A DNA stretch of 62,753 bases, the filler included, from Rhabdomonas costata (taxonomy: Eukaryota), in the NCBI GenBank assembly GCA_019059605.1. It is 13 parts of 13 records of this genome, joined end to end, with 100 filler letters (N's around TTAATTAATTAA, not from the genome) between each part and the next. Parts side by side here need not be neighbours in the genome. Positions count along the whole stretch, not along the records: positions 1 to 4,772 come from JAHMHO010000155.1; positions 4,873 to 9,639 come from JAHMHO010000156.1; positions 9,740 to 14,509 come from JAHMHO010000157.1; positions 14,610 to 19,356 come from JAHMHO010000158.1; positions 19,457 to 24,206 come from JAHMHO010000159.1; positions 24,307 to 29,050 come from JAHMHO010000160.1; positions 29,151 to 33,882 come from JAHMHO010000161.1; positions 33,983 to 38,712 come from JAHMHO010000162.1; 5 more parts are not named here. One strand, 5' to 3'. Both the position numbers and the translations under genes were made by a program. Positions 127 through 57,907 of this stretch are shown here, in pieces; within the stretch, counting starts at the first letter, position 1; the number at the start of each line of letters is the position of its first letter. The notes under the pieces were generated by a model that was given only the letters and a program-made list of their open reading frames with translations, had not been told where the DNA came from and searched no databases.

Positions 127-1359
127 CTGCTGGGCAATGATTTCCTGGCGGGTCTGGTCGAGGAACTCCTTGGGGATCCCGCCGTGGTCCTGGGCGCTGA
201 TCAGCAGAGCCCAGAGCTCCCCCATGAAGGGAGCCGCGTGACGGCCCAGGAAGCCCGTCAGCTCGACCTGCATCTGCCGTGGGTCCGTGGTCTGTGTACA
301 AATGATGGGTGGCACAGAGTCAGAGATCGTCAGATGTGGTGGAAAGATGTCATCGTCGCATCCAGCTGGCGGTTTACCTAGCGCACTTGTCCCCGTTTTG
401 ATCCTTGACGTTGTGGACGGTTCAGGTGGTATGAATGGATGCACACCAGTGCAGGGGTGACACGGCAAAATTTTCCAGGGCTTGGACCAAAACCCAAAAA
501 CAATGTGTCGTCCAGAGACCAACCAGAGCTGGAAGACACATTTAGAGCAGTGGATATCATACGACGAAATGAACATGCGTGATCTGAGTGTCGGTGTTTC
601 GCCTGAGCAGCCAAAAAGGCATGTGCAAGATATCAAAACAGCGAGGCCCATGGCTGAGGTTACAGACACCTCCGCCTCCAGGTGGTTAAAGACGGTGCCT
701 GTGAGAATGTCGTCTTCAACGCCCAGCATTTCCCTGAGTGTCAATAATGGAAGAAAGGTGGGAGCAATCTAACAGCAGATTTTAACAGCGATAGGTGTGA
801 AACCGCTGCTGGTACAGCCTTAAAGAGACCAAAGCAAAAGCAAAAGGACCAATGACAGTTCCCTTTTCCCACAGTAAAGGTAAAACAAAACATCCAACAC
901 TCGTCCCAGGGGTGGCCGCTAATATGTTTTGCATTCCTTATAATAACAACAGCTCAAAATTAGCTCGACCCATCGACCCATTCCAACCATGCTTCGACCT
1001 TAGGACCGGGAGGCATCCGCGATGGTGCCTAGGTACCGCACGGCGCGACAAGCGGGCACGCGAACGTTATTCGGCGGGTGACCCAGGGCCGCATGCACTC
1101 CAGCTTCACCTTCTTCATGGACACGGCGGTGGAGAAGCAGGGCGGAAACTTCAGCTGCGACATCAGTTTCTGCAGTGGGACATGGGAAAAAGGAAAAGAG
1201 CAATTAACAACCACAGCCGGGCAACCGCATAGCTGAAGCCGTATAAGCAACACGAAAGTGCAACGCAGTAGAGGAAGGCGATGGAGGGTGGTGGGAAAAG
1301 CAGGACATGGATACCTTGTTCTTGTCCTTCCATCGCGGATCCTGCTCTAAGCTTGTTCC
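127..1359 (-). CDS. SRRM1: SRRM1/SRm160-type PWI-domain splicing factor (partial, at least 4 exons)
   Basis: GT-AG spliced exons join in phase: GTSLEQDPRWKDKNK|KLMSQLKFPPCF...VKLECMRPWVTRRIT|EMLGVEDDIL...|TTDPRQMQVELTGFLGRHAAPFMGELWALLISAQ. This matches the PWI consensus. The first exon is unresolved and the 3' end is off the contig. Confidence 0.9.
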
Positions 1360-2880
1360 CTGCAAGTTTAGAGAAAAAAGATTGACAACACGAACTCGAC
1401 GCAAGCAAGCATGCCGCTCAGCTGTGCCGACGGTTTTGACCAGTCTTAAGCCGAAGCTCTTGCACACTGGTGCCGTTGGCATGTCGGGTGTGAAAAATCA
1501 GCGTTCCAATGTCAGCCAACCATATAATAACATACCAGAAGTCATTGAAACACACAGCAAGCTAGGGAATAATAAAACGCACTTCAGTAAAAAAAAATAA
1601 TTCCGATAATCGAATCCCTAAAAACTTGACGCAGCTGCGATTTTTCTGGACCCTTCTCCTTCCCATAGAAACAACATTAGTTACATCGCATCACGTCAGT
1701 TTATCAGTCCCATCAAGCGAGTGCACGAGAGAGAGGAAGCGACCGCCCTTCCACTCCTGTTCCCAGCGGACAACAACCCTCATTCTTATACCCTCCGGGT
1801 CTCCATCACCACAAAGGAGGAGGTGGTTGAAAGGAGGAGGTGAGCAGACCACCACCAACACACTCCACTCACTGTGTCACACTGGGTGACGGGGGGTGCT
1901 CCCTGTGTGACACAGTATGCTTGTGCTCGGAAAAGGGGAAGATCACAGGCCAAAGAAGCCCTGAAAAAGATACGTGCGGAACTTCCACTTGGTTCGACTG
2001 ACGACCCAGTATGGGAGGAAGGGAGGAAGGAGCCAAGCATGATGCAGAGAAAGGTGGACAGCCGGCTATTCAACGCACATCAAACGAAGTGGTAATTGCT
2101 CAGACAGACCTTGCGTTTCCACCACTTTATCAAAAACGAGTTCGACCGAAGACCAGGGATGACAACGTTTCAATCCACAGCTGACACCCAAATATAAGTT
2201 GCCCAAAAAATAAGGGATTGAGTGGTCGATACAGGTAATAACCAGACATCTGCCTCAGCGCTTTTGACCGATGCCATACAGCTCTGTCTGTCTTGCTTGA
2301 AGAAATAGCGGCTGTAACGGCAAGAAGGCTCACCCAAATCCTGCGCCACGGGCTTTGCAAAACCTGTGATGAGGATTGGATTCATTCCCCTTTCACACTT
2401 GAGGTGGACCTCACGGATCCGACCACCGAAGTTAGAATTCATCGGCATAATTCGGTCCGCGATGAATTCCGATTCAGACCGTCCAATCCCTCCTCCAATC
2501 TTGGTGGATGGGACACAAAAATCTTCACAGTCACACGCGTGCGCTGCGAAACCGAAGGCTCGCGCACCAAAATCCGCCAACCAGAAACCCAACAAAACCG
2601 AAAAGGTCGTGATTTGAGGATCAAGCAGGGGTCCAAAGGCCCCATAATCTGACTTCACGCAAGACACAAAACTGAAATTCCATCCCCGGGGAGCAGTGTT
2701 GAAATGCAGAATCATGTCGGGACCGAGTCCTTCTCTTCAGAGTGAGCGGACATTCAGGCTCAACAGCCTCCTCTGCAGAGTGGTTATTTTGTGTGCTCTA
2801 GAGCAATCCTTTTGGCGCATCCATGGTGCGCTTTCACAGCGATGCGCTTCTTGCTTTTGCGCTCCATCGCCACTCGGCAC

Positions 2881-4710
2881 TCAGCGGTTGTTGGTATCCA
2901 CAAGCAACGGTGTGATGGCTTCTGCACGGGCGGCTGGGGAAGAAATGGTCCCCGCAGTTGCAGGTCTCCGCTGAGCCACCAGCACGACTTGGGCTCCCCT
3001 GACCCACACCTGCGTGACGGCTCGAACCTGCGCTTGGAAGGTGCGGCGGTGAGACGCCGATGCTCTGTGCAAGGAGAGGCATGAGAAAGAAATTAGTGTT
3101 TCCCCGCAATTTCAAGTTGTAGGAAAGATGAACAATCATCAAAACGCAGTAAAACAATGCGCCGACTCACAGGTCAAATCGGCTTTGCAAAGATTCAGCC
3201 ATTGTTTTGAAGACAGGTTCCGTGTGCCTCAGTTTCAAAAAAAAAAAATAGGAGAGACAGGGTAATATACTTTGAACCATTTATTAACCCCGCCATAGGC
3301 AAGGCAGAAACCGCGAAGACTCCCTTCCCAACACGGGTGATAGAAAAAGCGAAGAAGCAATCACGCTTCCCCTTTGGAAGGATGCATTGCCGATCACCTT
3401 TTCCCATTTAGGGGACCATTTTGGGCACATGACGGAAGGCTGAGGAATGCGCATTCATCGAAACCTATTGCGCGGTGCGATGTCCTTGGCGTCCTTCGTG
3501 GTCGAAGAAGGTGCGCTTGCATTCTTCAGAAAGACACGCGGAAACAAACGACGGAGCACCAGCAACATCCTTACCCTCATTCCAAAAATCTCATTCGCCC
3601 AGATTATAGGATAAAGGCGCCTTTGCCTCTATCACCAAGTAAGTTTTGCAAAGTTGACTTTGACACATAGTGAGATTCGGCGCCCTACTTGTCGAAAGCG
3701 GAACTCTCTCCCTCTCTCTCTCCCCGCAACTCTTCCCGAGTCGGGACTGCACTGTACCACAGACATTCGCTCAAAATCGATGCTTAATGATTTCCTGCAC
3801 AGTTCGCGCTAGTGGGTGCAGTGGTGAGACTGAGTGGACTTGGCACGTGCAAAAACAGCCAGGGGAAGTCTCCCTTGCAACAGAGCACCTTGAAGGAGCA
3901 ATGCCAGGTCTCTGTGGCGTCCACGACAAGCAGGTTGAACTGCTGGTCAAAGGCCAGTAAAAGGCCCTCCAGTTGTGGGTTGAGGTAGCCGCGCTGGCTG
4001 CGAAGCCTAATCCACACCCTGGTCCGGCACTCAACAAACTTCAGCAGTAGGGACAGGGGCCCCTGAGAAGGAAAAGAGTGACAGTGATCTGTCCAGCGCG
4101 AAGCGGAATTTTGAGAATCGCTGTCACAAACAAGCAAGAAAACGAAATCCACGCATTTTGGCTTGGACAGGAATAGAGCAAGTTATGTGTTCAAATGTGC
4201 TCTGCAGTAAAAATTGAGTCATTGATCCATAGCGAGAGCATCCGTGTGCCATAGTAAATGCTCTTCTTTGACTTTGGGCCAGGTGTGTTTGTTCGTTCGC
4301 GCTTGTGTATGTTTGTAAGATGAAAAGAAAAGGAAAAGGAAACTCACAATCCCACGTATGAAGCAGAGCGATGATGAAACGAAAAAGCTGTCCCTAACCT
4401 AAGACGCGCGCAGCCTGGGTGCTCGCGTGGAGAGTCCTGTTGCACTGTTGTAACAGCATGATGAGGTAGCAAGCGGTGTTGCTCTTTTCAATAGCCAATG
4501 CTCAAGGAGAGGGGCTCATTACCCCGAACTTGAGTCTGGGAAAAGGGCTGCCGCTCGTGAAAGGGACACGCACCTGAGCGAAGTGTCGCCCGAGTCTTTC
4601 GAAGAGCCCAAAGCTCGCTGTGCGGACCGTCCTCGCCACGCTCTCCTGCTGCTGCCGGTACCACTGCTGCGCGCGGGCGTGCTCCTCAAGGCGGCTACCC
4701 CTGCGCCATC
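2881..4710 (-). CDS. LSM11: LSM11-like (U7 snRNP Sm-like protein), 5' partial
   Basis: Exon ~3888-4062 reads GPLSLLLKFVECRTRVWIRLRSQRG...GLLLAFDQQFNLLVVDATE (Sm1). A linker exon lies at ~3474-3522. The last exon reads RAVTQVWVRGAQVVLV (Sm2) and ends in TGA at 2881. Phases are consistent, and GPLSLL plus a split Sm1/Sm2 is typical of LSM11. Confidence 0.72.
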
Positions 4711-6713: not shown

Positions 6714-7771
6714 ATGACTCAGCCTGAATTTTCAAAGGTCGCCGCAGCCTTAGCATTCTTCATGAGCAGGCGTTTCAAGATGCGCTGCAAACGTTCACCC
6801 CCAACCACGCTGCCACCTTCAAGGACGTTAGCAGTGACGAAAACAAGCATACGTACTATGATGTATACAAGCAATACGTCGCCATGGTCGATGACATGAT
6901 GTCAGCTCGCCTGAAGGCCCTTCTCGGCCCCAGCTTCGACCTGAACCAGTTCACAGAGTCCCTTTCCAAGAAGATGGAGGATCCCTCCACCAAAGAGTTT
7001 CTGTCGACCGAAGTTTTTGAGCTGCTGATTCACTTGACCGACTTCCAGAGTTTCAAGGACATGATGATTGGGGCTTACAAGGAGCAGACCGGCGATGTGT
7101 TCAAACTGAGCGAGAAGCAGGCCCCTGCATTGAGCCCAGAGCAGGCGGACGTGGTGAAGTCTTTGAAGGAAGCGACCAAGGTTCTGGACGCCGGCGGTGC
7201 GGCTGAGGGATGGAAGGTTGCCTCCAAGGGCCCCAACTTTGAGGTAGCCCGTAAGAAGGACCCCACTGGGTTTCCTGTGGATATCTGGCGGATCCGCCAG
7301 AACTTGGACGTCCCGATGGAAGGGATCTTGACCCTGTTGTCGGATCCCCTTCTGCGCCCCCAGTGGGATGATGACTGCCAGAGCGTGGAGATTCTGAAGG
7401 GCAAGGCAGGGGACGACGACGTCACTGTGCGGCTGGTGATGAAGGGGATGATGATGATGCCCCCGCGCGAGCTGTACCACCGCCGCATTCTTGCCCGGGA
7501 CTTCCCAGAGAAGGGTGCGGTCAGCGTGCTGCTGGCCCCGCACGATCCCGGAACCCCCCCTCCAGCAGGGATGTCCCGGGGCGTGTTCCGAGTGTTCAAC
7601 TCTGTCCTGCGCCCCGCTGACATCCCGGGGCGCACCCAGCAGACGGCCTTCGTGCAGATTGACATGGGCAAGATGCCGGGGTTTATCTCCAACATGCTGA
7701 TGGGCTACTTCCTTCCCCGTCTTCCGGCGAAGATTGAGGCTGGGTACCGAAAAATGGCAAAACCGAAGTAG
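6714..7771 (+). CDS. BART (ARL2BP/CFAP36-like) domain fused to a START lipid-binding domain. Intronless, with an apparent 1-nt frameshift near 6766
   Basis: The frame of ORF 6884-7771 extends upstream as QAFQDALQTF...DENKHTYYDVYKQYVAMVD, then LTDFQSFKDMMI (BART). The C-terminus has GWK...RPQWDDDC...PRE...QIDMGKMP (START/SRPBCC). Confidence 0.75.
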
Positions 7772-8583
7772 AACGGAGCACTTAAACACACCTAAGGTTT
7801 TTCTCTTCGTTTTCCTGGAAAGATGCACTTTTGCTTGTATTTTGCTTGTATTGCTTCAAGTGCCCGTTCACTCAGCGCATCACAGCACATCATTATCTGC
7901 TGCTTTCTGTTTTTTGTTGCCTGCTTCTCTTTCAGGAACCGCAGTGTGATAGGGTGAGGGCTCTTCTTGTGGTTCTTGTGGAGACCCTTCCCTTCTCCAA
8001 CCCTGCGTGATGTCGACTCGCCTTTGTTACGATCGACTCTTTGCACAAACCGCACCGGGAATCGTGCGCCGTGTTGAGACTTTCTTTTCTCTTAACAAAA
8101 GAATCCGAATGCGTTTCGCCCTTTCCTTTCTTTCTATTTCTTCCTTTCCCTCTATTTGTTGGCTAAACATTGCCTCGTGCATCAGGATATGTCAGACTTC
8201 ATGGAAAATTGATTTTTTCTTATTCTGCATTGCGTGGTTACTTTCGATTGGTCCGCTGGGATTATTCGCCAAATGGTACCCGACTGAAGTGAACATGGGG
8301 AAACGGTCACTGGTAATCATTGTTAACGGCCACTCAGCCAACGTCGACGTCAAGCCCCGAAATTGATGGTTTACTTGCTTTCGCGACTGGAACAAGCGAT
8401 CTTCTGCTGATGCAGGGAGGAGCGCCTTAGGTGCTTATTCTGCTTTCCTGACGAGGCTGGTCGTCTCATCTGTCACCTGCAGCGCTTGAACTTTGACTGT
8501 CTTTTTTTCAACCGTCGGAGCAGCTCTCCGCTGCGTACGTAAGAGGAGGGGTTGAGAGGGACAGGGCTGGTGAACTCAAAGAG

Positions 8584-8727
8584 ATGCCGAAGTTCTACTG
8601 CGAGTACTGTGATGTCTACCTGGCCCACGAGTCGGTGGGGGTGCGGCGCCAGCACCGCAAGGGCCGCAAGCATAAGGACAACGTGCGGGCTTACTACATG
8701 GGGTACGTGGAGAAGAACCCCGAAGTG
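8584..8727 (+). CDS. SNRPC: U1 snRNP protein C, first exon (matrin-type zinc finger)
   Basis: MPKFYCEYCDVYLAHESVGVRRQHRKGRKHKDNVRAYY followed by a GT donor at 8728. Confidence 0.9.
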
Positions 8728-9767
8728 GTGCGTCACTCGTGATCTGTGCTATTGATTGCCCTTCTCTTTGGTTTTGGGTCTGTTTTATCAAATTGTGTGT
8801 GCGTGGAGGGGTGTGCAAGAGAAGCGCCACAAGAGATGGTTGGGTTTCTGCACCTGTGTGAGAATGGATTTTTGTGCTTCCTATGGTGACTGGTCACGTT
8901 GACCCTCCCGCTCTCCTGCCACTGTGTTTGCCTGCAGGCTGGCTGGGCTGGCTGGCTGGCTGGCTGCTCCAGTGGAGATGCGTACGACCTTTTGCACACG
9001 TGCTCTGGTTTCCCTTACTATTCGAAGAACGGAATTTTTAAATTTCGATTACCTACCAAATCTGAATCCTTGTTCTCCGTAATTCTCATCGTTGAGACTA
9101 TCCTGACATTTTGTTTTAATTTCTGTTCACAGTTGAGTTTAATATACCTGATCATCAGCAAAGGTTTCGCACCTCCCCACCCCCAGATTTAGACAATGTT
9201 GGAGCTGAAAGAGACAGGTCACGTGGCCCAACATTGTCTCTTTACCGGGGGGAGGTGGGCGCGGGCAACTCCAACATAGTTTTCCACCCTGGAGGGATAC
9301 CGTGTAAGGCAAATGGAGGGCGCATGCGAAAAGGGAATTAAATGGGTACAGGTGATCACAGAAGTTTTGGCACATGCTGTCCCACAGGGCAGGAAAAAGC
9401 TGGGAAGGCGGCCTCGGCCTCACAGATTTAGAGGCAAGACCAGACACAAAGCAAAGAGACTCGCAGCGTCAGTGGTGTGCTGGTTTCAGAGGGGCTCGAA
9501 AAGTATTCCAATGGGAAAGGGGCCGCTAGCTTTGGTGCCCAGAAATGTAGTTGACCGCAAAGGCTGAGCGGCTTCCAGGCGACTCAGCTTTTCCTTTCCC
9601 GGCCCTAAATCTTCTTGCACGAACACAGACCACCCCCACNNNNNNNNNNNNNNNNNNNNNNNNNNNNNNNNNNNNNNNNNNNNTTAATTAATTAANNNNN
9701 NNNNNNNNNNNNNNNNNNNNNNNNNNNNNNNNNNNNNNNTTGTTGTGTGTCACGACAAGGTCCAGGC

Positions 9768-11485
9768 CTACTTTCGGCGTGTGGCCCACAAACCGGCACC
9801 CCGTCCCCTGGCAAAGGCCTCCGCCCTTGCCATGAGAGGGTCCCACCTGACCGCCAAAAAAGCCAAGAACACAAGGGAAGAGCGTAGCAAACGTCAGAAA
9901 CATATACATGAGGTACATCAGAAGGAAGAACGCACAAGCATTCCGTCGAGGAGTCCGAGGCCGGGAAGCAGCCAACCGGTCCGGTCCGGTACATCAGAAA
10001 CGCGAGAAAGGAGCACAGTGGTCGAAATGTCAGTAAGTCAAATGAAGCAAGAGAATGAGCCCCCGCGCTTCGGAGCGAGCACGCCTGTTGCTAGAAAACA
10101 AGGACGCTGTGATTAGCGCTAAGGTCGACCCACACCGTTTGACAAACTCTGCCAGCAAACGCGAACCACCAAACGGCTCTAACCAGATTGTGGTTTCTTT
10201 TTTTTTGGGGGGGGGGGGTAAAGAACCGAGAAGTCAGCTCAGAGGCGCTGTGGAAGGCGTAGCCGTCGCGGATGAGGTTGACGTTGAGGTTGCGGAATCG
10301 TATCGGCCAACCATACCGCACCATCCCGTGAACAGCCCCTCGCGGTTCCTTCCGCAGCAGCCTCAGATCCACCGTGCTCCCCAGAACCAGGCTGCGGACG
10401 TGCTGCACTGCTGCGTCGCTGTCCCCTTCCAGAGCCTTGAGCCTGGGCAAAACCGCATCCCGAAAAATGGCAAATATCAATACACTGTCTCAATCAAGGG
10501 GTTGAGTAACGTGGACGTTGCGACCAGGTGGAGGCCAATTCTCCTGGCGACGCCCTTTACATCTGGTTGTCCCTGCTTTTTTTTTGTGGAATGTTAGGAG
10601 CGCTAGTCCCTTCTTGCGGGAAGTATGAAGTGATCTCCATCGTGGATGAAACACCACACTGGACTGGAAGCAGCTGGGGCTCCTGCGAAAAAGGCTTATC
10701 CCAGCTCAACTCAGCGGAATCAAGTCCTCCAACCCCCCTCCCCTCTCTGCGTCGCGCCGAAGGCATTATGCCGCTGTCGCTTAGCGGCCAGCACCTGGAA
10801 CTAGCAACAGGCCTGCTCAGCAGAGCAGGGTTGCATCTCTCTCAAAGTTAAATGTGGACATGCTCAAAGTTCAATTCAAAGTTGAGTGGCATGAATGCAG
10901 CAAAAACCACAACAAGGATATGCTAAAAAAACTGGGCCAAACAAGAACCTCAAAGCTCAAACTTCAATTCAAACGTCTCACCTGTTCAACGGTGTGGGCA
11001 CAGTCCCACGTTTAATTCGGTTTAATTGAACTCCAGCTCAATTCTCCACTAAAAGTTTAACGCAACCCTGAGCCGAGAAAAAAGGATACGAGCTGAGGTG
11101 CCAAGTGAGAGAGCAGGGTAGGGTAGGGTAGGGCAGGGTGGGCATGCCCCGCCAGCTGGACAAGGATGGTGTTGGCCTCGGGCCTCCCACCCTTCTCCGG
11201 GGTCCAGGCGGCGCGGAGCAAGGGCTTGTGGGAGACCACCAACATGGACGGGCTCCGCACAGACAGCACCCTCACAAGAATTCGCGCGCGAGAGAGAAAG
11301 AAGATGTCATTCAGGTCCGCCGAGGTGCGAAACCTGCGGGTGAGGACGGAGCCCGTGTTCAGGGCAACACCCACCGCAAGCCCCACCACCGCCAGAGCGG
11401 GAACTCGGACGTATGCCGGAGCGTTTCCCCATACGTCGTCTACGTAGTCCATAACCCAGTCCAAGCTCTTCAGCATCTCGTTCAT
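9768..11485 (-). CDS. C3orf33/LCL3-like SNase-fold protein with an N-terminal TM helix, 3 exons
   Basis: TM helix, then RRFRTSADL...ILVQLAG|LKALEG...NLNVNLIRDGYA...|...RAEAFARGRGAGLW* (TAG at 9768). Intron 1 is GC-AG (11147-10443). Confidence 0.75.
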
Positions 11486-12112
11486 TGTGCCAACCACACT
11501 CGTCCAGAATATGAATATGTGAGAAAAAAGGCAATGCAGGCAAAGTTTGCCGAAGGGAACGAAAAGAATTAGGATCAAATAGGAAGCAAAACCGCAGCCA
11601 AAGGAAGCCGGGGAAAGGGAACTCATTCTATCCTCCGCACTCTTGTTAATTGTGGACGCGCACTTGCAACGGTGCACATCTCCAGAACTATCAGGACGCC
11701 GTTCACTGTGCCGTGCCTTGCCGTGCTGTGTTTGTTCCATTGCTTTGCTGGTGAAAAGGAGGATACTTCAAGACCCAACTGCAAACCTCATCTAGGAAGA
11801 AAACAGCGGCATTTTTCGGTTGGCAGTGAAAGAACCACAATCAACAGAACCTAAAAAGTTGGTACCACTTAAAACACCCCTTTCCCCTTTCACGGGGAAA
11901 CCACTGAAAAGCTGGAAGGCATTTTGTCCATAAGAATGTCCGTTGTTAAAATCAGGAAGTAACACCTTCCTCCGCCTCAACAACAAAAAGGTTCAAAAAA
12001 AGAAACCGCCTGAGCACACACTGCAAGCTGGCAGGCCGGCGAGCGGTACCAGCCACAATCGCGGATTTCGCGCACACACGCACACATTCACAGTTGGAAG
12101 CGCTCCTTGCTC

Positions 12113-24148: not shown

Positions 24149-24329
24149 GGCAAGAAGCTGCGCAAAGGAAAACAAAAGAGACTCCACAAGGGCTCCACAA
24201 CCAACANNNNNNNNNNNNNNNNNNNNNNNNNNNNNNNNNNNNNNNNNNNNTTAATTAATTAANNNNNNNNNNNNNNNNNNNNNNNNNNNNNNNNNNNNNN
24301 NNNNNNGTTTTTTTGGTGAACTCTTGCAG

Positions 24330-26188: not shown

Positions 26189-26219
<31 letters not shown>

Positions 26220-33877: not shown

Positions 33878-34074
33878 AAACCNNNNNNNNNNNNNNNNNN
33901 NNNNNNNNNNNNNNNNNNNNNNNNNNTTAATTAATTAANNNNNNNNNNNNNNNNNNNNNNNNNNNNNNNNNNNNNNNNNNNNGTTGTGGGGGGGGGTAGG
34001 TGAAAAATCAAATCAATAGATGAAAGGGGTGAAAAACTATGCTTCACGGCGCTAACATGCACGCATCTTCACAC

Positions 34075-43419: not shown

Positions 43420-44799
43420 CTGCGCGACGGCACATCGGAAACGTGCACATCTGCCTCAAACACATGGGGGGGGGGTCTTGACATTGCAAAGCTGACGAAG
43501 GAAAAACTCAGAATAGTATATCACGCCAACCGCGGGGACAATCCAAACCAGTTNNNNNNNNNNNNNNNNNNNNNNNNNNNNNNNNNNNNNNNNNNNNTTA
43601 ATTAATTAANNNNNNNNNNNNNNNNNNNNNNNNNNNNNNNNNNNNNNNNNNNNGGTGGGGTGGCCACCGCGATCAAGCAGAAGGAGGAGACGAAGGGGGA
43701 GGCGAGCTAGGGGTCCTGCCAGGGCAGTCGACTAGTTATTGTCGACGGGTGTGCCCAGCCGCAGACGTCTGGCCGGTTGGAGATGAAGCGACTTTGCTTT
43801 TTGTTTTTGGAACAAATGGTTTAGTACTTGGATGCAGTTTCTCCTGGACTGCGAAGGCGGTGCGTATAACGGCGCTACATGTCATGATGGGATGATGTGT
43901 TTCAACAAAAAACGGTAACGGTCCGCATGGCCGCGGGACTTAACGCTTCGGAGACCAAATAGTATATTATGGAGGCTTGTCTACACAAAGGGCGCGGGGT
44001 GCGCTTCTCAAAAATTGCCTGTCTTATGTTTGCTTGGGCTTGGAGCCTGCCCGTTGGCCACCAGGTTGCGGGTTCGACTCTTCGTTTCTTGGCCCCCGGT
44101 TCGCTTTGTTCGCCGGTGTGAACCCCATGCCGCATGAGCTTGGGGGGAACACCATTCTCCACGTCCGACCAACCCGGGCACCAACGGAAGGGAGCCTATT
44201 CTGATCTTAGCCACCCTTCTTAAATCAAACCAGTCGGCCAGGTTTCTGCAATGAAGTTTCGGCCGTTTTGGTGCCCATTAGCCTCCCGAGCCGGACCATG
44301 ACTGGTGGCCCGTTGCCCGGGTTGTCGTTGCACCCTTGTTCTTCCTCGGGCGCATGAAAATACCGGGAAATCCAAATGGACGATGTCCGTTTACTCGGTC
44401 CCAGTGGTCGCCGCCGCTATTGCGGCGCCGGCCTCGGAAGAAAGACCTGGAACAAGAAGCCCAAGATTCCCATGGTTAAAACCCCCCAGGGGTAGCACAA
44501 GATAGCAGCTTGCGCCGTTCGGCACCAAGTGTCTCATAATATAATAACGATCGTAAACCACGAATCTCACAGAAAAGTATGCGACGTATTTCGACTCGAG
44601 TCGTCCTGCCCCAAGAAATTGCTATCGTCTTCGTCCGTATGGCGCTTGTGCCATATTGGCCCTTACCCACATCAAGTATGTGCTTTTGTTTTGTGCTGCC
44701 ACCCGCCGCGGGCACGAGAAAAAATTTGATTTTTACCCAGCGGGAATGCTGATTGCGGATTGTGTGGTTTTTGTTCCTTACAAGCGTATTTTTTCCGCT

Positions 44800-47700
44800 C
44801 GGGCAGCAGAAATAAGAATTCTGTGGTTCTAAGTTTTCCGGTAACGTCCTTAAAATTTTGCGGTTTTTTCCGCCAAGCCGTTTAACGCGGTGTTTCGTTT
44901 AACCGCAGATGTCACCAATCTTACCGTTTACATCATTTTGTATTGAAAATTTTTGTTTTAGAGTGGCCTTGGTACCAATCAGCTGTGCCAGCCCGCTTTT
45001 ATTCAAGCATTTTGCCGTGAAAACGTTGCAGGCAATTTAACTGGGTAAAAGCCGTAATAATTTCACGAAGAGCAAAATTTACAAAGCAACAAAGCAGAGT
45101 ATTCAGGTTAAATGCTGGATGTAAACCGGCTATTTCAAGGCGCAATTCCTCCTAGCAGAATTTCATTGTTAAGACTTTTCACATGCATATAAGCTGAAAA
45201 TTTTTCAACGATAGCAACATGGACCACTGTCTAATATTCTAAAGTTCCCGATTACAAAGAACGAAAACTTTGCGGTAATTGCGGGAAATTCCACAAAATG
45301 ATAATTCCATAGCGTTTATAACGCAGTGAGTCTGAAAACTATACAGTGGTTTAAAACATTTAGCTGAATATGATCGCACACCAAATCCAAACACAATAGG
45401 CAAATCGGTGTGGTAATGTGGGACGTTTCAACTCATCTTATTTTACACAACCTACAACTGCTTTGCAGTAGGCGTACGCGCCGTTTTATTTGCACTATTT
45501 GATTATTAAAAGTTTGACACTGTGTTTAGCATGCATCAGTCCACAAAATGTCCTACTATGCACAGAAATATTTGGCAGAAGAAACTCCCACATTACTTTT
45601 CTCCGAGACAGTTTATTTGGGAACCATTTAACAGAAACTGTGTGCCACGCCGCCACATTGTCAGTCCACATTATTACTTTCTTGCCAGTGCATAAAATGC
45701 ACTTCCAAAGCACATTGATTTTGAGTAGTAACCACATAAAATGTTGAATACTGATGCCACATGTTTAATCTGGAAGCTCTGTTACAATGAGCCCAATTTT
45801 AAATCTAAGTTATTTGCTTTACAACAATTTGCAAGTGCAAACCTATTGCAAGCAAGTAATAACGTGTAGAATTGACAAACACGTGGTCCTCAGCTTGTAA
45901 CCTCAGAAAAACCTCGCGCATTCCGGACTTCTCCTCCTCGTTGGAATAAAGCCAGAATATGAGTTATAATCTGGCAGCTCAAGTTTAAAATCTCGCGATG
46001 TATGAGGTTGCGCCCTGATAAAAAGCATCAATGCTAAAAAAGGTTCATATTCACAAGAGATTATAGCACTCATATGTTCCCAGTTGTATGTTATTTTGAT
46101 AACAGTCGTAACTGATTTCAACCACAAAAAAGAGTTATACTACCAAATCCTCAACAGCAATATTGGTGAAAGCTTCTGACAATTTGTTCTCATACCAAAA
46201 GACGCCAGCTTATCCGCACAACGAGTCCGATGAGTCAACGGCACAGTTCCGGAAGCAAATGATCCACAATAGGCGGAAGTGCTACCACACGCATCTGTCA
46301 AAAATGCAAAACTGCAGGATGATCGGTGTGACTACCTGATTCTGTCGTTCGCTGGTCTGGAAAAATGGAGACATCATGGGATGCACACTTACCAAAAATT
46401 TATCTCCAGTCCCTCTATCACACCGCAAGAAATGTGGTTTTCAGACTGCCTTCCAACTAACTTTCCACTATGATCCACTATTTTGACTGAGTTGGACGAG
46501 CAGCTTTGAATAGCTGCTGCAAAGACTCTGATAGAAGTCTTTGACAATTGGACAAGCTTAAAATACCAATTTCTCTAACTTTAACCATTACATAAGTGGC
46601 ATTACTTCTGCAGTGAAATACGCACCTAGATGGCACGTGCCACGCTACATAACACGTGAGAAAAATATACCTTGTCCTATGGGATTGAGGGTTTTTGTTC
46701 ACAAACAGCAACTTACAGGACACCATAAAGCCAAAACATTGAAAAAAACACAAAATAGCAATGAGAGTACACTGCTTAAGTAAAGCGATATAATTTTACC
46801 AGGAAAGATGACAAGAATTTAAAGTCAGGTTGCAGCACATTACTTATAATTATACTGTCTACACGTAACTATCTGCAATATGAGTTCATTATTGCTTTGA
46901 AAAGGAAATGAGTAATTCTATGGTTTCACTGAGATCTCATGCTAACTGCAGATTGCAAGTCATTGGAAGCTCAAAATGTAATTGCAGCAGCCAAAATCAG
47001 TGATACTTTTCTAGTAGAGTTCAACGTTGTTGTACTTGCTGATTGTTTATGCAAACCATGCATTAAATTTGAATTATACAGGTGATTTATTTCCAGTTTG
47101 ACGACTCGTCGTACCATTGCTTCGACATTTGTAGCTCTGCATAGATATCACAATTGCATGAGTTTACGTTCTTTATTATTTGTTTTCTCTGACCTCCGTT
47201 ACAGAATACATGCACATTATCAACTGCAAGTTTTTATATCATCCGGCAAATTCATGGAAACATAGTATGAGTAGAAAACTGCCATTTGTGACAAAAATCC
47301 AAAAGCTGACTAGCTGATGCAGTCCATCTGTAATATTGGTTCTGATTGATGTGAACTTAAGCATATATGATGCTATGAAATGTATTGTGTACACTGAAAA
47401 TGTTATTTTATGCAGTATTTCACATTCATTAGATTTCAATGTCACTAAAAATGGAAAACTGATTTTTGTGCTGAAGTTTAATAACGGTATGTTTTAGGAA
47501 AGCCACGGAGGTCCAACAAATTTAAATGCATCTCTGCAACGCGGCGTAGAAAGTTCAAAACAATCTTCAATAATACCTGACTTATTGCAATCGGCAATAG
47601 CGGCAAAAAAGTACCGCGTGCTTCACTGCTTTTGTATTATATATTTTTGCTAGGCAGCAACGGTACCCCAGCAAATGGTTGGTACAAATGTTCTGTTTGG

Positions 47701-48300
47701 CATTGCTTTGCCGAGGAGTTTCACTTGGCTGTTTGCCAATGATGCTATGGTGTGGTGCTGTGTGTTACTGTGTCTGGGCTTCATGTTCACTTGTTGATGC
47801 GGTGCACGATGCTGTGTTAGTGCTGGAAGCAAGGTGTTAGAACTTTACATGACAGTTAGCAAATTAGAAAACCGAACTACAGTTTAACGCAAAATTCATG
47901 AGTGTTAACTCTGCAGGTTTAGTACACGACAAAGCTTTGCTTTTTTTTGATTTTTTTGGGAGGTGTGAAATCCGTCTCAGAAAAGGAAACCTGCCACTCA
48001 ATTTCCTTTAGAAGCAACTTGACAATAGTACCTCGTAAATGTTTGAGGTCCAAAAAGCCACAGTTCAAATAAAACTATTATGTAACAGTATACTAGAAAT
48101 AAGTATCTTGTGCTCTAATACTAACATTATTATGTACTTTATATAATATTTTTTTGGATGACTTGATAAAACACATATGCAAACTTTAGTGAGTTATTTG
48201 CATGAATGCGGGTAAATAGCGATTTTGGAAAACGGCCAAGGAGATTGCATTGACATTTTCAAGTAGCAGGACCTAACCTCCTCCGCCAGAATTGAAGGAG
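44800..48300. other. AT-rich segment with no long ORF or recognisable gene
   Basis: Visibly lower GC than the rest of the window. The longest ORFs are under 100 aa. Confidence 0.7.
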
Positions 48301-48827
48301 GCAGGGCAGCATAAGCGTCAAACGCGACTCCAGAAGAAGGAAAACGTCATGTACTCAAACAANNNNNNNNNNNNNNNNNNNNNNNNNNNNNNNNNNNNNN
48401 NNNNNNTTAATTAATTAANNNNNNNNNNNNNNNNNNNNNNNNNNNNNNNNNNNNNNNNNNNNGGGGGGCATTCTGTTTCTCCTTTTCAACACACCAGCTC
48501 GCTGTGGGTGGTCGCAACCCCGGCCAAGTGTTGTCAAAGAAGGGAAGGAAAAAACCCCAATACGGTCCCGTATCGCTCCCGCCCGTGTGGCGACCGCAAA
48601 CGGTAGCGACGTGAAAAAACCACTTCGAACTCCACCTTTCAGCTCACTTTTTTCACAATTTCTACGACGTTTTCCGGCAGGAGCGCTTTCTTTTAATATT
48701 TTTAACGTTTTTTCGAATCATCTTCTGCCATCTTCAACAACTGAACACACAAAAAAACGGACACCAACAGAACAAAAGCAAACAGAACCGAGAGAGTAGC
48801 CCCATCCGCAAGTGGAACAAATGAAAC

Positions 48828-50620
48828 CTGGACAAGTTCAGCAGGATGGCCCCCTTGTGCATCCTTTGGATCTCTGTGGCTCTAATCAGCCCAATGGTTT
48901 GCTCCGTCTCCGGGACGTGCAAACTGACCACGTCCGACGCCATCAACAGCTCCCCCAACGAGGACAAGGGAGTGGCTGTGCCGATCGGCATCACGTTGGC
49001 CGTGTCGTAGAAGAAGACCTAAAGTTGACCCCACCCACAAAGGCCACTGGGATCCGAAGGACCGGCTGAAAAATTTGTTTTTTTGGGGTCGGATAAGATG
49101 TGCCATGAGTGTGAGTGTGAGGGGATTGGGATTTTGTGTCAGCCCTCAATACATGAGTAACACATGAGGAGCACATCTCTACACTACTGCTGGCCTATGG
49201 GATTGGTGTTGGAGTGAACCCGCGAGAAAGTATTAGTTTGAGGCGAGGAGCCCGGAGCAGGCAGTAGGGGCAGGAGACAATAAGGCATCGTCAAGAGGAA
49301 AATTGTTGCCGGCCCCCCCAGCCTTATGAGCACCCTCGCGCCTCCAACATCACCATTGCACAATTTTCAAAATCCTTTCCCCACAACGAGAGAACATGTC
49401 AAATAGTCAACAGTGGGGGGGCTAGCGGAAAGGAGGCAACCTGTCGTCGTCACATAAGTGCATATGCTGCACTGGCCGCTCACCATGATGCGACAGAATT
49501 TGCATTTTTCCATATACCTCTTTCGTGGATGGACACAACAGAGCCAGAGTGCTGGTACAAGGCAGGGCACTGGCTTAGCAACTGCGAGACACACACCTTC
49601 ATCCCCACTGCCTCCGCGAGAATGCCGAGCTGGGTCCCGATGTGACCATACCCCACAATCCCCAGGATCTTGCCCCGCACCTCCAGGCAGCCCTCCGCGG
49701 TCTTCGTCCACACCCGGTTGTGCATATTACGGATGTGGTCAGGAACCCTAGGAAGAGGTCACAAACCCAAGAAATTTGCGGATGGGGCTGCCGCAGAAAA
49801 GGAGGCGGATCGGCCGAATGCTCGTTCCATTGTTGAGGAGGAGGGATTCCAATCAAGGACTGAAAAAATGAGGAAATAAGAATCATAAATACACGCACGC
49901 ACGACGCACTTCCGGCTGAGAGAGATGATGTGGGAGAGGGTCAGCTCAGCCACGCTCCGGCTGTTGGAGAACGGCGAGTTGAACACGGGCACCCCAAGCG
50001 CCTCCGCGGCAGGAAGGTCTGTCTGGTCCGTGCCGATGCAGAAGCACCCCACCGCCTTGAGCCGCTTAGCCGCAGAGAGCACGGCATGGGTCAGCCGAGT
50101 CTTCGACCGAACCCCTTTTGTTAGAGAGTGGAAATAAAAGCACAGGAATATAAAGTAAATGAAGGGAGATCAAAATAGGAAGGGAAAGGCAGCACACACT
50201 AATTTGTTTCTGTGGATATACGGTTCCATATATCCCATTTAACCGTCACACCTTGGGGAGAGTACTTTGAGATACCACTGTCGTTCTTCTTTGATTGAAT
50301 ATTAATATTAACAGGGATGTGCGGCATACAAAAGCCATCGTGAATACAACCAGGGCAACTTCAACAAAACCACCCCGTGGGGGTCAAAGGTGGTGGAAGA
50401 CCACTGTCTTCTGTAAGGGTGAAGAGTCTCATATGCAAGTGCTGGCATGGCGTGGAGAGGAGAAAGCAATGCACCACGGGACACAACCAACGAGATGGAC
50501 ATCGACGATCTTTTCCAAAAGCTGTGTTTCGCCCAATGCACCGGTCAGGGACTCCACAGCGAAGCCCTCCTTCCGAAAGATGTCCGCCGCCGCCGAGGAA
50601 ATGCTCTCCAACAGCAAAAC
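48828..50620 (-). CDS. serA: D-3-phosphoglycerate dehydrogenase (E. coli SerA/yeast Ser3 type), partial, 4 exons
   Basis: [79 protein letters not shown]. Confidence 0.95.
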
Positions 50621-51439
50621 CTGCGGTGATGCACCAGCATCCGTTTCCAAAATGCAAAAAATCTATCTTTATCGGGACTTAGGAAGTGCTGTCCAGAAGT
50701 TGTGCGGCTGAACACCGAGGAGCAAGGTTGGATGACTGACTTAGAAGGCTGACGAGACAGAGGCCCATGCAGCTATGACACTAATTCATAGTACATACCA
50801 ACAAAACTAAACGAAAGCAAAGATTTGAAAAAGGACAGAACGCATCCGAGACCGAAACCAGCTGGGTCATGGATGTTAGGTAGGAGTGACAAGCGAATTA
50901 AGCAGAGAGAGGGGGGGGACAACAAGGAAAGCCGCGCGGTAACTATTCAATAGCGGAATTAAAAAAGCGGAAGGGTAGGAGGGCCATGAACAGGACAATA
51001 ATAATAGATACTGGTACAGTAAAAGAAGAACAGTATGTCAAGCCGAACTGAAGTGCATGCGGGTAACAACAGAAGCACCATGACAACAGCAGTTCAACAT
51101 TGATTGATTTGGTGAAGGGAATGAGGAGACAAGACAGTATCTCTCTTATCTCTAATTCACTAAAACGAGACTACAACGAGAACGAGAGATTTGTTCAAAG
51201 CTGTCGGACTCGTTTTTCTTTCCACTCAAGCGTACAGTAGCACATAACAGAATCTTTTTGAATTGAGAGAATTGCATACGCTATATCGATATTGACAACC
51301 TGATTAACAATGAAGCAGGTCGGAGGGGTGACGTACACCACACACAGAGCCCTGAGACTTTAAAAAGACGCTTTCTTGAGGATAACAGAGACACTTGTCG
51401 ATCGAATCTGAACCTTGTCTTGGGACATGTACTGTTATG

Positions 51440-52971: not shown

Positions 52972-54032
52972 ATTACATCACAAAATTTGCACACATTTAT
53001 TATTTATTCACTCCAGGCATGGTGAAGAAGATTTAAACGTTAATAAATCCCCTTGTTTAATAACACAGCATCATACTGTACAGTGACTCCAATGTGCAAT
53101 GGGTTGTAAAGAGAAATTAGATGAGATCGAGATGAGATCACCCAATTGTGTGTCGGGCTTTTCCCCACCCAANNNNNNNNNNNNNNNNNNNNNNNNNNNN
53201 NNNNNNNNNNNNNNNNTTAATTAATTAANNNNNNNNNNNNNNNNNNNNNNNNNNNNNNNNNNNNNNNNNNNNATACTTTCGTTTTTCAGCATAGGCTGGC
53301 TCAATGGTAACCCTCAGCCTAGAGTCTAAAGAGATTGTGGGAGCTGCAACTCAACCTTGTATATGCGGTTTGTTTGTTTGAAACAATTGAATTCTCTGCT
53401 GGATGCTGGCAAGGAGAAATGAAAAAATTAGTGAAGAGGCGGAGGCCAGTCTGCGGCGCGGCCGAAGCGAAGCGAGGCTCGAAAAAAATGTGAACCGGCG
53501 CACCGGTAACCTTGGTTCACTTTTGCAAGAAGGTCGTTTGCCGATACTCTTATTTCTTCACCCGACCACCATCTTGTTTCATGCCCCCACCTGCACACTG
53601 GAGCCGGGTTTACTACACCCCTCGGGGCCTTACGGCCCCGAGATAGTCGCTTGCTGCAACTGCCATTGGGAATTCCGGTGGCATTCAGCCACGGGAGCGC
53701 GTCAATGCCTTCTGAACCACACCGGAAGACATTCGATGGAGGGATGGGACGAGGTTCTGCGTCATTTTAAACCTTTAGGTCAATTGCAAATGCGAACCAT
53801 GAGGGCAGAACACACGACGAGTCCATTATTTTCTGGCTTTCCAGGAGGATTTCCCACGCCTACAGGCCTGCGTACCGACCGACAGCTGAAGGAGCAGAGC
53901 GCAGCAATTTCGGCGGTTCCAAGTCGAGCCTTATATGTGATGTCGAGGCGTGAACATATAATGAGCCGAGCCGTATGAGAACGATACATGGGGAGCAAGA
54001 CAGCACCAAGGAAAACTCAGGCGCTCCCAGAC

Positions 54033-56254
54033 CTGTGAGACCAGCTCGCCGCGGTTGGCTGCGGTGACCGTATGTAGCCGCACCCCAGGCACGCGCTTGG
54101 CCTCCTCAATAAACCCCCCGCCGTGCAGCGCCACCGTGGCAAGAAGGGCCACCCCAGGGTTAGCCAGAATGGCCCTCATCGCCGCTGAGCCAAAAAAAAC
54201 GGACAATACTTTAGTTTGTGGGGCAAAGAATGCAGAAACGGGTGCTTTCAGCCACGAAAGCGATCACACAAGACGCTTCTGGTTCCGGCGGTCTGGCTAA
54301 CCTGAATTTCTCCAGGAAAGCAGGACAAAAAAGACCCAGCCTAACCTGAGTCAGGAAATAGTGGGCATTACAGTGCCTTCTGCTTGAGCCTAACTTCCGG
54401 AGCAACACAAATGCAACAGGAGATCCTGCAAATTTCGAAAAGGCCGAATGACCGAAGATGCCTCCCCAGAAGAGCTAGAAGACCCCAGAACCCACCAAAG
54501 CCCAAGACCACGCCCACTACCCATCATGCCGCCAAGGATCGTCCCATCTCGCCACTTGGTCCATATTTGGTTTTCTGCTGGTAGTCCGGCTCCGGTGGAG
54601 CCGGTTCACCTGAATGAGGCAACATCGCCTTCAAACGCGTAAAATTCGAGTCTGCACAGCTGATTCCCCATTATTGAAGGAGTCTGGACATTCTGGCCAC
54701 CACCTTTGCCTGGCTGCCGGGGTCAGAAAAAAGAAAGCACTGATGGAACGCTGGAGAGAGAGCGAGCGAGCGAGAGTTTCGACGGAAAGGCGAAAAACCT
54801 ACGAAGCGAGTGGAGAACAGCTCCATTTTCCCAATCTCGTCAATGATGTACACGGTTGGGGCAACAGCTGCGGTGACCCCCGCCACCTCCCTCCCCACTT
54901 CCCTTCATTGGAACCGATGACACAAACTCACACTCACAACGTAGGGAACACTTCGCCCTCATTGTTTCACCACAACACCATCGTGCGCTCGTTCACCCAT
55001 TTTCTGCGGGGCAGGCGGAGATTCCTGTCTCATTGTGGGATGTCCCACGGCTCACAGCATTGAGGATCTCAGTGCGAGAACTAAGGCAGCGTGCGTTGTA
55101 TGCATTTTTTTCATCTATCTATCTTTCGGTTCCTTCTGTGTTCCTACTTTCAGCTCTCTCTGTGCCCCAAATTCATACTTTTGCACACATACATCGAATC
55201 GTTGACCTGGCAGTGCGGGCAAACCTGGGCCACTCACCTTCGCCAGCCCTGCACGAATCCTCTCCAAGACAGGGATCGCCACGTTCTCAAAGGAACTCAA
55301 GTCAACGACATATCGCCCAACCTCAGAAGAAAACATGGAAATTGGAAATTGGAAAAATCCCATGATAGGCAGACGACGGTTCTGGTCCAGCTTCTCGCAG
55401 TCTGTGTGTGCATGTGTGTGCTCGCACAAAAAGTCACAGGTCTGCTGAGCTGAGCCTTCGACCTCAGATTTTTCTGCACTCTCGTTCTCTGCCATCTGCA
55501 CGTGTGACATTGTGACATGTGAAACTTGTTGCCTCCTAATTCGTCGACAATCCAAGTCGGATGAATGGAATTTCGGAATATTCCGATTTTCAGAAGGAAA
55601 AAATAAGTGCGCTATTACAATTTTACAATGTGCTCTCTGTTGTGGGATTCATTGGGATGTGCATTTTGGCAAAGAGCTTTGTTCAACTGTTCACAAAAAA
55701 ACAAGAGAAGAATTAGAAAAAACCGGGAATCCAAGCTTACTGGTTGGATTTCTTGCTTTGGTGTAGTGAGAGCTGTCACCCAATTACCCCTATTTCTTCT
55801 GAATTGGCGGGCATCGACATTTGGCAGTTGGGGAAGAAGCAGCAACACCCGAGGCCCTTGGTGTTCCCCGATTCTAGCCAAAGGCGCTGTGACCCGCTTG
55901 TCCAAAGTGACCACGTTGAAGCCCACACGGCCTCCCGAGCCCCGCAGCTCCTTGAAAGGCACCCCACACCGATTCACCTCTTTGCAGCAAATTAAACTCC
56001 ATTACTATTTCGTTTCCCTCGACTCCAAGTTGGCCACCCTACATGAACCAACCAGGAAAAAAATGCACAACGCACGTCAAACTCGAGTCTGCGGATCCCA
56101 TCCTTGGAATTCTAGTGGCATCGCCAAAAAGGCACACCGTCGTGATGAACCCGTCCATGGCAACGGCGGGGTGTGCGGTACAAAGGTACTCCCCAACCTT
56201 TAGTAACAGTGTGGTCTTTCCAACTCCAGGGCTTCCGGTAACGAGCAGGGCCAT
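54033..56254 (-). CDS. NTPCR: NTPCR/THEP1 (C1orf57-type) NTPase, at least 5 exons. A last exon may lie at ~53780-53860
   Basis: LLVTGSPGVGKTTL, GFITT|ELRG...RVGFNVVTL, |VGRYVVDLSSFENVAIP, YIIDEIGKMELFS, LLATVALHG...VTAANR. Confidence 0.92.
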
Positions 56255-56991
56255 GCTTCCAAAAAAAAAAGCAGTCTCTAATACGCCAAAAAGACAGCTG
56301 CTTCAGTGTGGAGGGGGCGTCAAAGCGGGCAAATGATATAAGGTAGAACGAAGCGGATCTTGAACAATAAATAACGCTGAGGTAAACCGCAGTGAAAAAG
56401 TCGCATATCTCACGAAAATCTTACGGACCTTGATGTGAGCCAGATGTGTGTGAAAAATGGCGTCCATACTGCGTTTTTAGTATTCTTCTTTCCTTTCACC
56501 TTATCGGTGAATCAGCGTGCGTAAAAAAGAAAGTACGTAGGGTTGTTATACTGCTTTACAATTTACTGGCAACCAACTCATTATGTATACGAGGCGATGA
56601 ATGCCTGCTGAATTTGAACTTCAAAGAACGCCAAAAGTGAGGAGATGCATCTTTCCCTTTGCTTAATACTTTGCCAATAACTGTGAACCACGGGAGTGAG
56701 GCGGGCACGTTCGTTAGAAAAAACTAAAGATCGGCCAAACCCAATGTATTTCGGTGTATTTCAGTGCGGGATGTGTCAAACAGCCAATGTTTCCCCGGAT
56801 GTGCTCGAGAACTTCCCACAGCTGAACCAAAAAGCCAAAACTACACCGGATCCCACGCAGGTGCACCCCTCTGAGGCAGGCAAGGTTGATATACCTCAGT
56901 AGACCAAAAAAACAAACAGTCAGAAAAAGGGCGAAGACGAAGTCCAGTGGGGAGGGTACGGGGCATGTTCCTATTTTCTTGTACAACTCCT

Positions 56992-57907
56992 TCACTGCAG
57001 CGAAACTCTGCCCTCCTCGGTGATCTGATAGCGCCGGTTCTTGAAGTAGTGGGAACGGAATTCAGGGTGTTCGGCCCCGTCCTGTGCCGACTCTTCCAGA
57101 GCGGTCAGAACTGCCGTCTGAGGTGAATGCAAACAGCAGAATAAGAGGGCATTTAGCACAAAAGGAACTGGTGTGTCACTCATTTATTGCCACCCCGAGA
57201 CAGGGCACAGACCAAGAAGAACAAAAAACCGCGAAACTGCAAAATATGCGGAAAAAAGGAAAGTGCATGTCAAGCGAAAACTCCATTTTTTTTTCTGCTT
57301 CACAAAGCGGTTTTGCAGGCAAGCGTCAAAAGGGTTTCCGTCTCCTCCAGCAGGCACTGGCGGTGTCAGCTGTGAGAACCCACAAACCCTACTTCAGAAG
57401 CAAAATTGCAACTTGGGGTTGCTTAATGCACTCTTTCTGTAACTTAGCGCGATGCACAGTGAAACATGACGTTCGATGACAACGACAGCCTTTTTGTGGC
57501 ACGGTTCAAAAAGAAAAAAGTGTGAACGAACTTTCTCGTCAAGAAGCTCGCGCGTAATAGCTTTGTAGTTCTCGCCATGCTTAGCCGCAGTCTCAGCAAC
57601 AGCCTGCAGCTTGACCCTGTACTTCCCTTCTTCCTCCTTGGTCAGTGGTCGCCCATCCTTGGGATGCGGCCCCTAAGTGACAAAAACAAGGAGCCAACCG
57701 CAAACAACTCATTTGCAAGGTTTTGTGCTCTCCCATCCAAATGAAAGCTACGAATCACATTTTGACGGCTGGTGAAAGCAAGATGCGTTCAATTTATTTG
57801 TGGGACCGATCCGTCACATGCCCACCCCCCTTAGTCCCCACGGCAGCAATTAATTTCGGGCTGCCTTCGGCCGCGGGCGCGAGATGATCTCCATGCCTTT
57901 CGGGTCC
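56992..57907 (-). CDS. Hypothetical protein 3' end with a weak SURP/SWAP-like pattern
   Basis: In-phase exons DPKGMEIISRPRPK|GPHP...KLQAVAETAAKHGENYKAITRELLDEK|TAVL...SHYFKNRRYQI...*. Confidence 0.5.

Follow-up and report, generated by a model that had tools for sequence, protein, structure and literature searches.

Polycistronic transcription of nuclear genes is attributed to all euglenozoan groups in one review (PMC8061765), and a second source describes polycistronic transcription in Euglenozoa as "omnipresent" (PMC7052976). A 2026 preprint gives mean lengths of same-strand gene runs, or directons, of about two in Heterolobosea and Jakobida, about four in euglenids and about six in diplonemids, the longest run in Euglena gracilis comprising 58 genes (10.64898/2026.07.29.740908). 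The subject here is a stretch of 62,753 bases (hereafter the window) of the genome of Rhabdomonas costata, a free-living euglenid that lacks a plastid, together with the directional gene clusters and the spliced-leader (SL) trans-splicing to which that stretch points. Leader trans-splicing is established in euglenids including R. costata (Frantz et al. 2000, cited in PMC8219788). The window is made of 13 separate contigs of 4,688-4,772 bp each, ordered from long to short and joined by N44-TTAATTAATTAA-N44 spacers; it is not a single locus, and statements about neighbouring genes refer to one to three genes per contig of about 4.7 kb.

The E. gracilis directons resemble what is seen here in that an intron-rich euglenid has an excess of same-strand neighbours and leader trans-splicing. 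However, that result is genome-wide and comes from a contiguous assembly, whereas at most nine pairs on 4.7-kb contigs of a different, plastid-less genus are available here, and Rhabdomonas does not appear in the available text of the preprint (10.64898/2026.07.29.740908). Another example is the diplonemid Diplonema papillatum, which likewise has same-strand arrays, as well as introns and many transposons; its unidirectional arrays hold 5-120 genes, and essentially all of its mRNAs carry the leader. Some Diplonema spacers exceed 10 kb and the arrays are seen on contigs longer than 50 kb, whereas array length is not visible in the window (PMC10161547).

More distant parallels are found in trypanosomatids and nematodes. 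The polycistronic units of trypanosomatids also join functionally unrelated same-strand neighbours, but their genes are nearly intronless and dense, in units that can reach hundreds of genes, whereas the genes described here have many cis-introns and a co-transcription that we infer. In trypanosomatids a pyrimidine tract and an AG upstream of each open reading frame (ORF) form the expected acceptor. In the SL2-type operons of nematodes, leader trans-splicing frees the downstream cistrons of one precursor, and the cistrons are separated by spacers of about 100 nt. The window differs from such operons on both of their marks, short spacers and a dedicated second leader: its spacers measure 812, 999 and ~740 nt, and a single leader type is known for R. 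costata. In our literature search, PMC8219788, the R. costata genome paper, was the sole paper found to combine Rhabdomonas costata, spliced leader and genome; in its available text gene order is not examined and the word "polycistron" is absent.

The arrangement in the window is best explained as intron-rich genes in same-direction runs with spacers of ~0.7-1 kb, the layout known from E. gracilis, diplonemids and kinetoplastids. It is rather probable, judging from the sequence, that the directional clusters are genuine and that the leader is added to their mRNAs, which would probably derive from shared precursors. RNA polymerase II would read through several adjacent genes, the 27-nt leader, trans-spliced to an AG ahead of the start codon, would free and cap the downstream messages, and cis-introns would be removed as usual. 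The use of particular AGs and the co-transcription of neighbours are the parts of this scheme that we infer.

Neighbouring genes share a strand wherever this is testable. The original prediction counted nine same-strand pairs out of nine, and co-orientation stands in all nine, but both partners have database support in only three: the Sm-fold exon with the PWI exon of an SRRM1-like gene lying downstream of it (both on the minus strand), BART-START with U1-C, and SUGP1 with the F5/8C-Sad1/UNC-like ORF (Table 1). One further pair, POLH with the SNase-like gene (contig 3, minus strand), is supported at the level of a lead. Three pairs have one supported partner (METTL6 with ORF23813, WD40 with the F-box-like ORF, and exons 57010-57645 with NTPCR), and the pairs involving the NUDIX-like exons and ORF12577 rest on an unsupported partner. 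Under random orientation, the three firm pairs would all match in strand with a probability of 1/8; for seven pairs the figure is 1/128, and for all nine 1/512. At a same-strand probability of 0.75, equivalent to a run length of about four as in euglenids, nine of nine is expected in 7.5% of cases. The pair data fit moderate and extreme bias alike. The firm neighbours are separate cistrons, because SUGP1 ends in a stop codon, the U1-C ATG at 8584 falls on position 1 of the zf-U1 profile, and NTPCR opens at ATG 56254 straight onto its P-loop. The predicted distances of ~0.4-1.5 kb between neighbours agree with the three measured spacers.

No opposite-strand gene was demonstrated by a six-frame codon map and Pfam on both strands. 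Opposite-strand blocks above 12 bits are mostly antisense shadows; two others (12.1 and 12.0) lie in kinesin introns and one (13.6) in a retroelement. A 355-aa ORF at 35080-36144(+) was considered as a nested opposite-strand gene and rejected as an antisense shadow of CCDC39 exons. Contig 6 had been flagged as a possible exception. It begins with a plus-strand exon, and the remaining 4.4 kb beyond 24571 are skewed in composition opposite to that exon, so an exception is possible; an opposite-strand gene was nevertheless not demonstrated, a weak ISXO2-like transposase ORF at 24789-25553(-) failing the cut-off (E 0.0018). The contig could contain a strand switch or a transposon in an intron, or could be chimeric.

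Strand asymmetry gives a second, independent view of direction that is new here. In the non-coding DNA of the window, T outnumbers A on the sense strand. Expressed as (T-A)/(T+A) for that strand after masking of coding blocks, the skew ranges from +0.04 to +0.155 in the introns of five validated genes and from +0.147 to +0.238 in three spacers (two between firm pairs and one before NTPCR); in contig 10, a gene-free internal control, it is -0.004. By contig mean the expected sign is found in 10/10 contigs, and this contig-level agreement is the fair summary, as a binomial figure for 300-nt windows overstates the case. Outside validated exons, 83 of 94 such windows have the expected sign. The corresponding counts are 29/38 for introns inside validated genes and 7/15 for contig 10. 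The contig-wide asymmetry continues through the spacers. It implies that every contig is read in a single direction from end to end, which is not proof of a continuous transcript.

The signals in front of start codons are less telling. Five acceptor-like strings quoted in the original prediction are all present as described, but they do not stand clearly above chance: an AG preceded by at least 10/15 pyrimidines lies within 25 nt of 192 of 748 sense-strand ATGs (25.7%), and within 3 nt of 33 of 751 (4.4%). The AG precedes the ATG by 1 nt at 12577(-), 2 nt at 31157(-), 1 nt at 56254(-), 10 nt at 19831(+) and 21 nt at 23813(+). Upstream of the AG at 12577 only 8/15 bases are pyrimidines; the start at 31157 has GAG at 2 nt and CAG at 47 nt upstream; NTPCR (56254) has a T10 tract and AAG 1 nt before its ATG; and 23813 has a good CAG acceptor candidate 21 nt upstream. 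Sequence signals alone being scored, 4/6 examined starts carry a pyrimidine-rich AG within 25 nt. Three starts are fixed independently of the AG, and in two of them, NTPCR and F5/8C, 12/15 pyrimidines precede an AG lying within 3 nt of the ATG, a coincidence of ~0.006 by the 4.4% background, for two cases only. An acceptor matrix built from 23 cis-acceptors, themselves inferred by expectation-maximization (EM), was used to rank 2,865 sense-strand AGs; the five quoted AGs fall in the top 27% (12577), 0.8% (31157), 28% (56254), 82% (19831) and 5.5% (23813). The AG-before-ATG pattern is compatible with trans-splicing near the start codon, for which it would be weak evidence.

Direct traces of the leader are found elsewhere in the window. 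The euglenid leader, which ends in TTTTTTCG, is represented by a complete 27-nt copy at 60200-60226, which matches the published R. costata leader (PMC8219788) at 24/27 positions. Its final 17 nt are identical to the published sequence, the mismatches being positions 6, 7 and 10, and an exact 17-mer is expected ~7e-6 times in a sequence of the size of the window. An exon at the left end of contig 6 shares 97.6% identity with residues 185-267 of the 408-aa EukProt R. costata protein RCo004918; the remaining 325 residues were not found in the window by tblastn. The copy and this exon bear out the predicted euglenozoan affinity and narrow it to a euglenid: the window is evidently nuclear genome of R. 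costata or of a very close euglenid. The three mismatches suggest that the leader of this strain deviates from the published sequence at those positions. According to the R. costata genome paper, the longest exactly matched part of the leader in the transcriptome is 17 nt (PMC8219788), and a true difference at position 10 would leave only 17/27 nt matchable there.

This single leader copy is followed by CC and not by GT. It was ruled out as an SL RNA gene, having no GT donor behind it and a helicase intron upstream. An SL RNA gene, with leader exon, GT donor and Sm site, was not found in the window, whose 62 kb are uninformative for the whole genome. A second TTTTTTCG occurs 14 nt downstream of the copy (~60241-60248) and may be a relic or a chance match.

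The copy heads a dead non-long-terminal-repeat (non-LTR) retroelement lying in an intron of an ASCC3/Brr2-type helicase gene. Upstream of it, and on its strand, are three helicase exons, the third identified by eye; the final exon stops near 60100 and the intron begins at ~60101 with a gtatgc donor. The leader is followed by ~150 nt of untranslated sequence and then by a zinc finger, a reverse transcriptase and, at the C-terminus, a nuclease-like motif. The domains were named by eye except the reverse transcriptase (Pfam), for which a PDB solved-structure search returned nothing useful. The coding part shifts frame, with several frameshifts and stops. The element lies in sense orientation within the intron and is cut by the contig end, and neither its 3' end nor a target-site duplication is visible. 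The leader sequence is therefore present in the genome at the head of a retro-copied RNA.

A complete leader at the 5' end with no donor after it implies that the template was a trans-spliced RNA, and the simplest reading is of a dead non-LTR retroelement copied from an RNA that already bore the leader. So read, the leader-headed retroelement shows that the organism's leader becomes joined to polymerase II transcripts and that an RNA contained in a larger transcription unit is able to serve as a substrate for trans-splicing, and the sense orientation of the element inside its host intron would fit a release of internal RNAs by trans-splicing. It carries no information on the acceptors or the co-transcription of the clustered genes. 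The relic leaders of dinoflagellate retrogenes are similar: there, too, a complete leader heads a retro-copy with no splice donor behind it. The present case differs in its Rhabdomonas-type genome, its location in a helicase intron and the truncation of the copy by the contig end. Among the titles listed by a literature search on spliced leader, retrotransposon and Euglena, none concerns leader-headed elements.

Table 1. Features of the window in order of position, with strand and principal support.
Feature	Positions	Strand	Support and remarks
PWI exon, SRRM1-like gene	103..357	-	Pfam PWI E 1.4e-16 on ORF 103-768; codon log-odds 34.9
Sm-fold exon	3856..4065	-	Contig 1; Pfam LSM E 1.3e-4, marginally under cut-off
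BART + START ORF	6728..7771	+	Contig 2; TAG stop 7769-7771
Spacer BART-START/U1-C, 812 nt	7772..8583	+	T>A skew +0.24 on sense strand; several pyrimidine runs
U1-C first coding exon	8584..8730	+	Pfam zf-U1 1.1e-18
SNase-like membrane-anchored gene, two coding blocks	10208..11497	-	Lead-level support
ORF12577, 153 aa	12119..12577	-	Unsupported call
DNA polymerase eta-like (POLH), two N-terminal exons	13681..14212	-	Contig 3; Pfam IMS E 9.5e-5
Kinesin motor gene	15257..18970	+	Pfam Kinesin on two exons; six coding blocks
METTL6-like methyltransferase gene	19831..21989	+	Contig 5; database support for motif I exon 20701-20808 only
ORF23813	23813..24145	+	Unsupported call; codon log-odds 15.6
Exon of R. 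costata RCo004918, residues 185-267	24323..24571	+	Contig 6, left end
F5/8 type C / Sad1-UNC-like ORF, 669 aa	29151..31157	-	From ATG 31157 to contig end
Spacer SUGP1/F5/8C ORF, 999 nt	31158..32156	-	T>A skew +0.165 on sense strand
SUGP1 (SURP, G-patch), three mapped exons	32160..33617	-	Stop 32157-32159
CCDC39 fragment	34072..38495	-	Fills contig 8; many short exons
F-box-like ORF	39343..39945	-	Motif by eye only
WD40-like exon	43174..43455	-	9/9 PDB matches WD40 / beta-propeller; best CIAO1 E 0.0033
Contig 10	43654..48362	none	42% G+C; both strands free of coding signal; no strand skew
D-3-phosphoglycerate dehydrogenase-like (SerA), four coding blocks	48836..50623	-	Pfam 2-Hacid_dh 1.8e-19, 2-Hacid_dh_C
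NTPCR (NTPase_1), five exons collinear with Pfam profile	54018..56254	-	ATG 56254
Exons of unnamed gene upstream of NTPCR	57010..57907	-	Codon log-odds 13.0, 12.8 only
ASCC3/Brr2-type helicase exons	59566..60100	+	Pfam DEAD 1.6e-8
Spliced-leader copy, complete 27 nt	60200..60226	+	No GT donor after
Dead non-LTR retroelement, leader-headed	60227..62753 (leader from 60200)	+	Pfam RVT_1 4.1e-5

The same layout could arise if co-oriented genes were transcribed separately, each from a promoter of its own within the 0.7-1 kb spacer, and the leader only replaced a short 5' outron, as it does in non-operon nematode genes. The measured spacers are roomy enough, and each holds a 100-200-nt stretch in which the skew is lost or reversed, as a gap between terminator and promoter might; these dips are, however, within the noise of 100-nt windows, and the skew of the three spacers equals or exceeds that of introns. 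Under a strict search only 15.3% of R. costata transcripts had the leader at an end (PMC8219788), and the E. gracilis genome paper questioned polycistrons on an extensive scale (PMC6366073), whereas reviews and the 2026 preprint, in their available parts, regard euglenids as polycistronic. Separate transcription alone does not explain why all neighbours share a strand, and it appears unlikely. It is more doubtful still that the pattern is an effect of small sample and gene calling, with orientation near random and some partners being non-genes or pieces of a neighbour, sought on the strand already in hand. ORF12577 has no relative, the NUDIX-like exons, the F-box-like ORF and ORF23813 have no database support, many long ORFs in the window are compositional junk, and three firm pairs would all agree by chance in 1/8 of cases. 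Against this, the codon map contains no free-standing opposite-strand block above 12 bits, bar the shadows and the kinesin-intron and retroelement blocks, the skew agrees with the validated gene in most windows outside validated exons and, by mean, in all 10 contigs compared, and a directional bias is reported in relatives (10.64898/2026.07.29.740908; PMC10161547).

Several observations weigh against directional clusters with leader-bearing mRNAs from shared precursors, which is still the reading preferred here. Pairs with both partners supported number just three, with the chance probability given above, and contigs of 4.7 kb reveal close neighbours alone and never a long array. Spacers of 0.74-1.0 kb can hold ordinary untranslated regions and promoters, and their skew may reflect untranslated regions only. 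The skew windows are autocorrelated, many lying in introns of the validated gene itself and not in the territory of a neighbour; every spacer has its dip, and opposite skew is found on contig 6 and in the 650 bp upstream of kinesin. U1-C, whose start is best fixed by homology, has no pyrimidine-rich AG within 25 nt, its candidate acceptors lying 60-100 nt before the ATG, and only 2/5 of the quoted AGs reach about the top 5% by the matrix. From outside the window come the strict search of the R. costata transcriptome, in which the share of transcripts given above had at least 10 nt of the leader at an end (PMC8219788), and the opinion that the sparse E. gracilis genome "likely precludes extensive polycistronic transcription" (PMC6366073).

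The finding extends an already published organisation to another euglenid and is not a new kind. If the bias proves genome-wide, R. costata would be a second, deeply separate euglenid lineage with the layout of Euglena, diplonemids and kinetoplastids, and would support an early euglenozoan origin of directional architecture, prior to intron loss. A stronger proposition, possible but doubtful, is that nearly all R. costata neighbours belong to one-directional, continuously transcribed units marked by unbroken T>A skew. In that event, kinetoplastid-style units would predate intron loss and genome compaction and reach back to the euglenozoan ancestor, and compositional skew alone could map transcription units in fragmentary euglenid assemblies. 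The T>A skew of the sense strand also offers a homology-free assignment of transcription direction on short contigs, a small but real gain.

The gene calls behind these statements come from a Pfam scan, on both strands, of 440 ORFs free of stops and at least 70 aa long, extended to 148 of a set of 294 shorter ORFs selected by codon score and to 45 selected blocks at E <= 1; short exons are seldom significant in such a scan. The codon log-odds map is six-frame and unbiased, with Pfam-validated stretches as its exclusive training set, and key partners were further examined by PDB solved-structure search, Atlas, tblastn and EukProt. Scans of the window for tRNA genes and for Rfam RNA families each returned 0.

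The intron-rich character anticipated for this genome is upheld by CCDC39, which has nine coding blocks in 4.4 kb and seven ORFs matching Pfam CCDC39 collinearly, and by the five collinear exons of NTPCR. From CCDC39, NTPCR, kinesin, SerA, SUGP1, ASCC3 and POLH, 23 cis-introns were inferred by EM with a coding term and intron-only matrices, their borders standing without a transcript check. They measure 106-772 nt and have a donor near GTGTGC and a weak pyrimidine tract before the AG; 10/23 of their acceptors are not YAG.

Among the minus-strand genes, the Sm-fold exon had been labelled LSM11, a name that the PDB search does not favour: the closest solved structures are SmE (best E 3.5e-4), with LSm11 at E 2. 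Named SUGP1 matches begin at E 3.6e-7, and the SUGP1 exons were mapped by tblastn of a Chasmostoma protein (P0003); a PDB search with the SUGP1 C-terminus returned nothing useful. The F5/8C-Sad1/UNC-like ORF has its domain at the N-terminus, followed by a low-complexity tail (Atlas 0.98, 202 shared features); no homologue of similar length was found for the 669-aa ORF, and the PDB search of the domain gave nothing useful. The F-box-like ORF matched no Pfam family at E <= 1. Upstream of NTPCR, ~740 nt from its start and on its strand, the unnamed exons have no credible Pfam family; position 57907 is an exon start behind 'tttag' and not an ATG.

On contig 3, no further POLH exons were recognised, either over the 1.1 kb leading up to ORF12577 or past it, and the POLH-like gene (12578-14509) may be a truncated pseudogene, part of a chimeric contig, or a gene with missed short exons. 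The homologue search with ORF12577 returned its own entry alone, and no Pfam family matched. The two SNase-like blocks have codon log-odds of 31.1 and 14.9; the gene scores 0.85 in Atlas to the C3orf33 cluster, in which 11% of members have SNase, and finds SND1 in the PDB at E 0.84. No Pfam family was found for it at E <= 1, and the PDB gave nothing useful for its first exon.

On the plus strand, the NUDIX-like exons of contig 2 matched no Pfam family at E <= 1 and no useful PDB entry. BART-START is a single open frame with Pfam ARL2_Bind_BART (7.7e-19) and START (5.5e-8); its ATG apparently lies just upstream in a different frame, likely through a small intron or a sequencing indel. ORF23813 has no credible Pfam family. 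The motif I exon of the METTL6-like gene has METTL6 as 5/5 of its PDB matches (E 0.016-0.023); its other exons matched no Pfam family at E <= 1, and a second exon gave nothing useful in the PDB. A (CT)n microsatellite of 29 copies (21922-21977) lies within this region and enlarges the open frame there. Kinesin is the sole gene recognised on contig 4, and contig 10 differs from all other contigs of the window.

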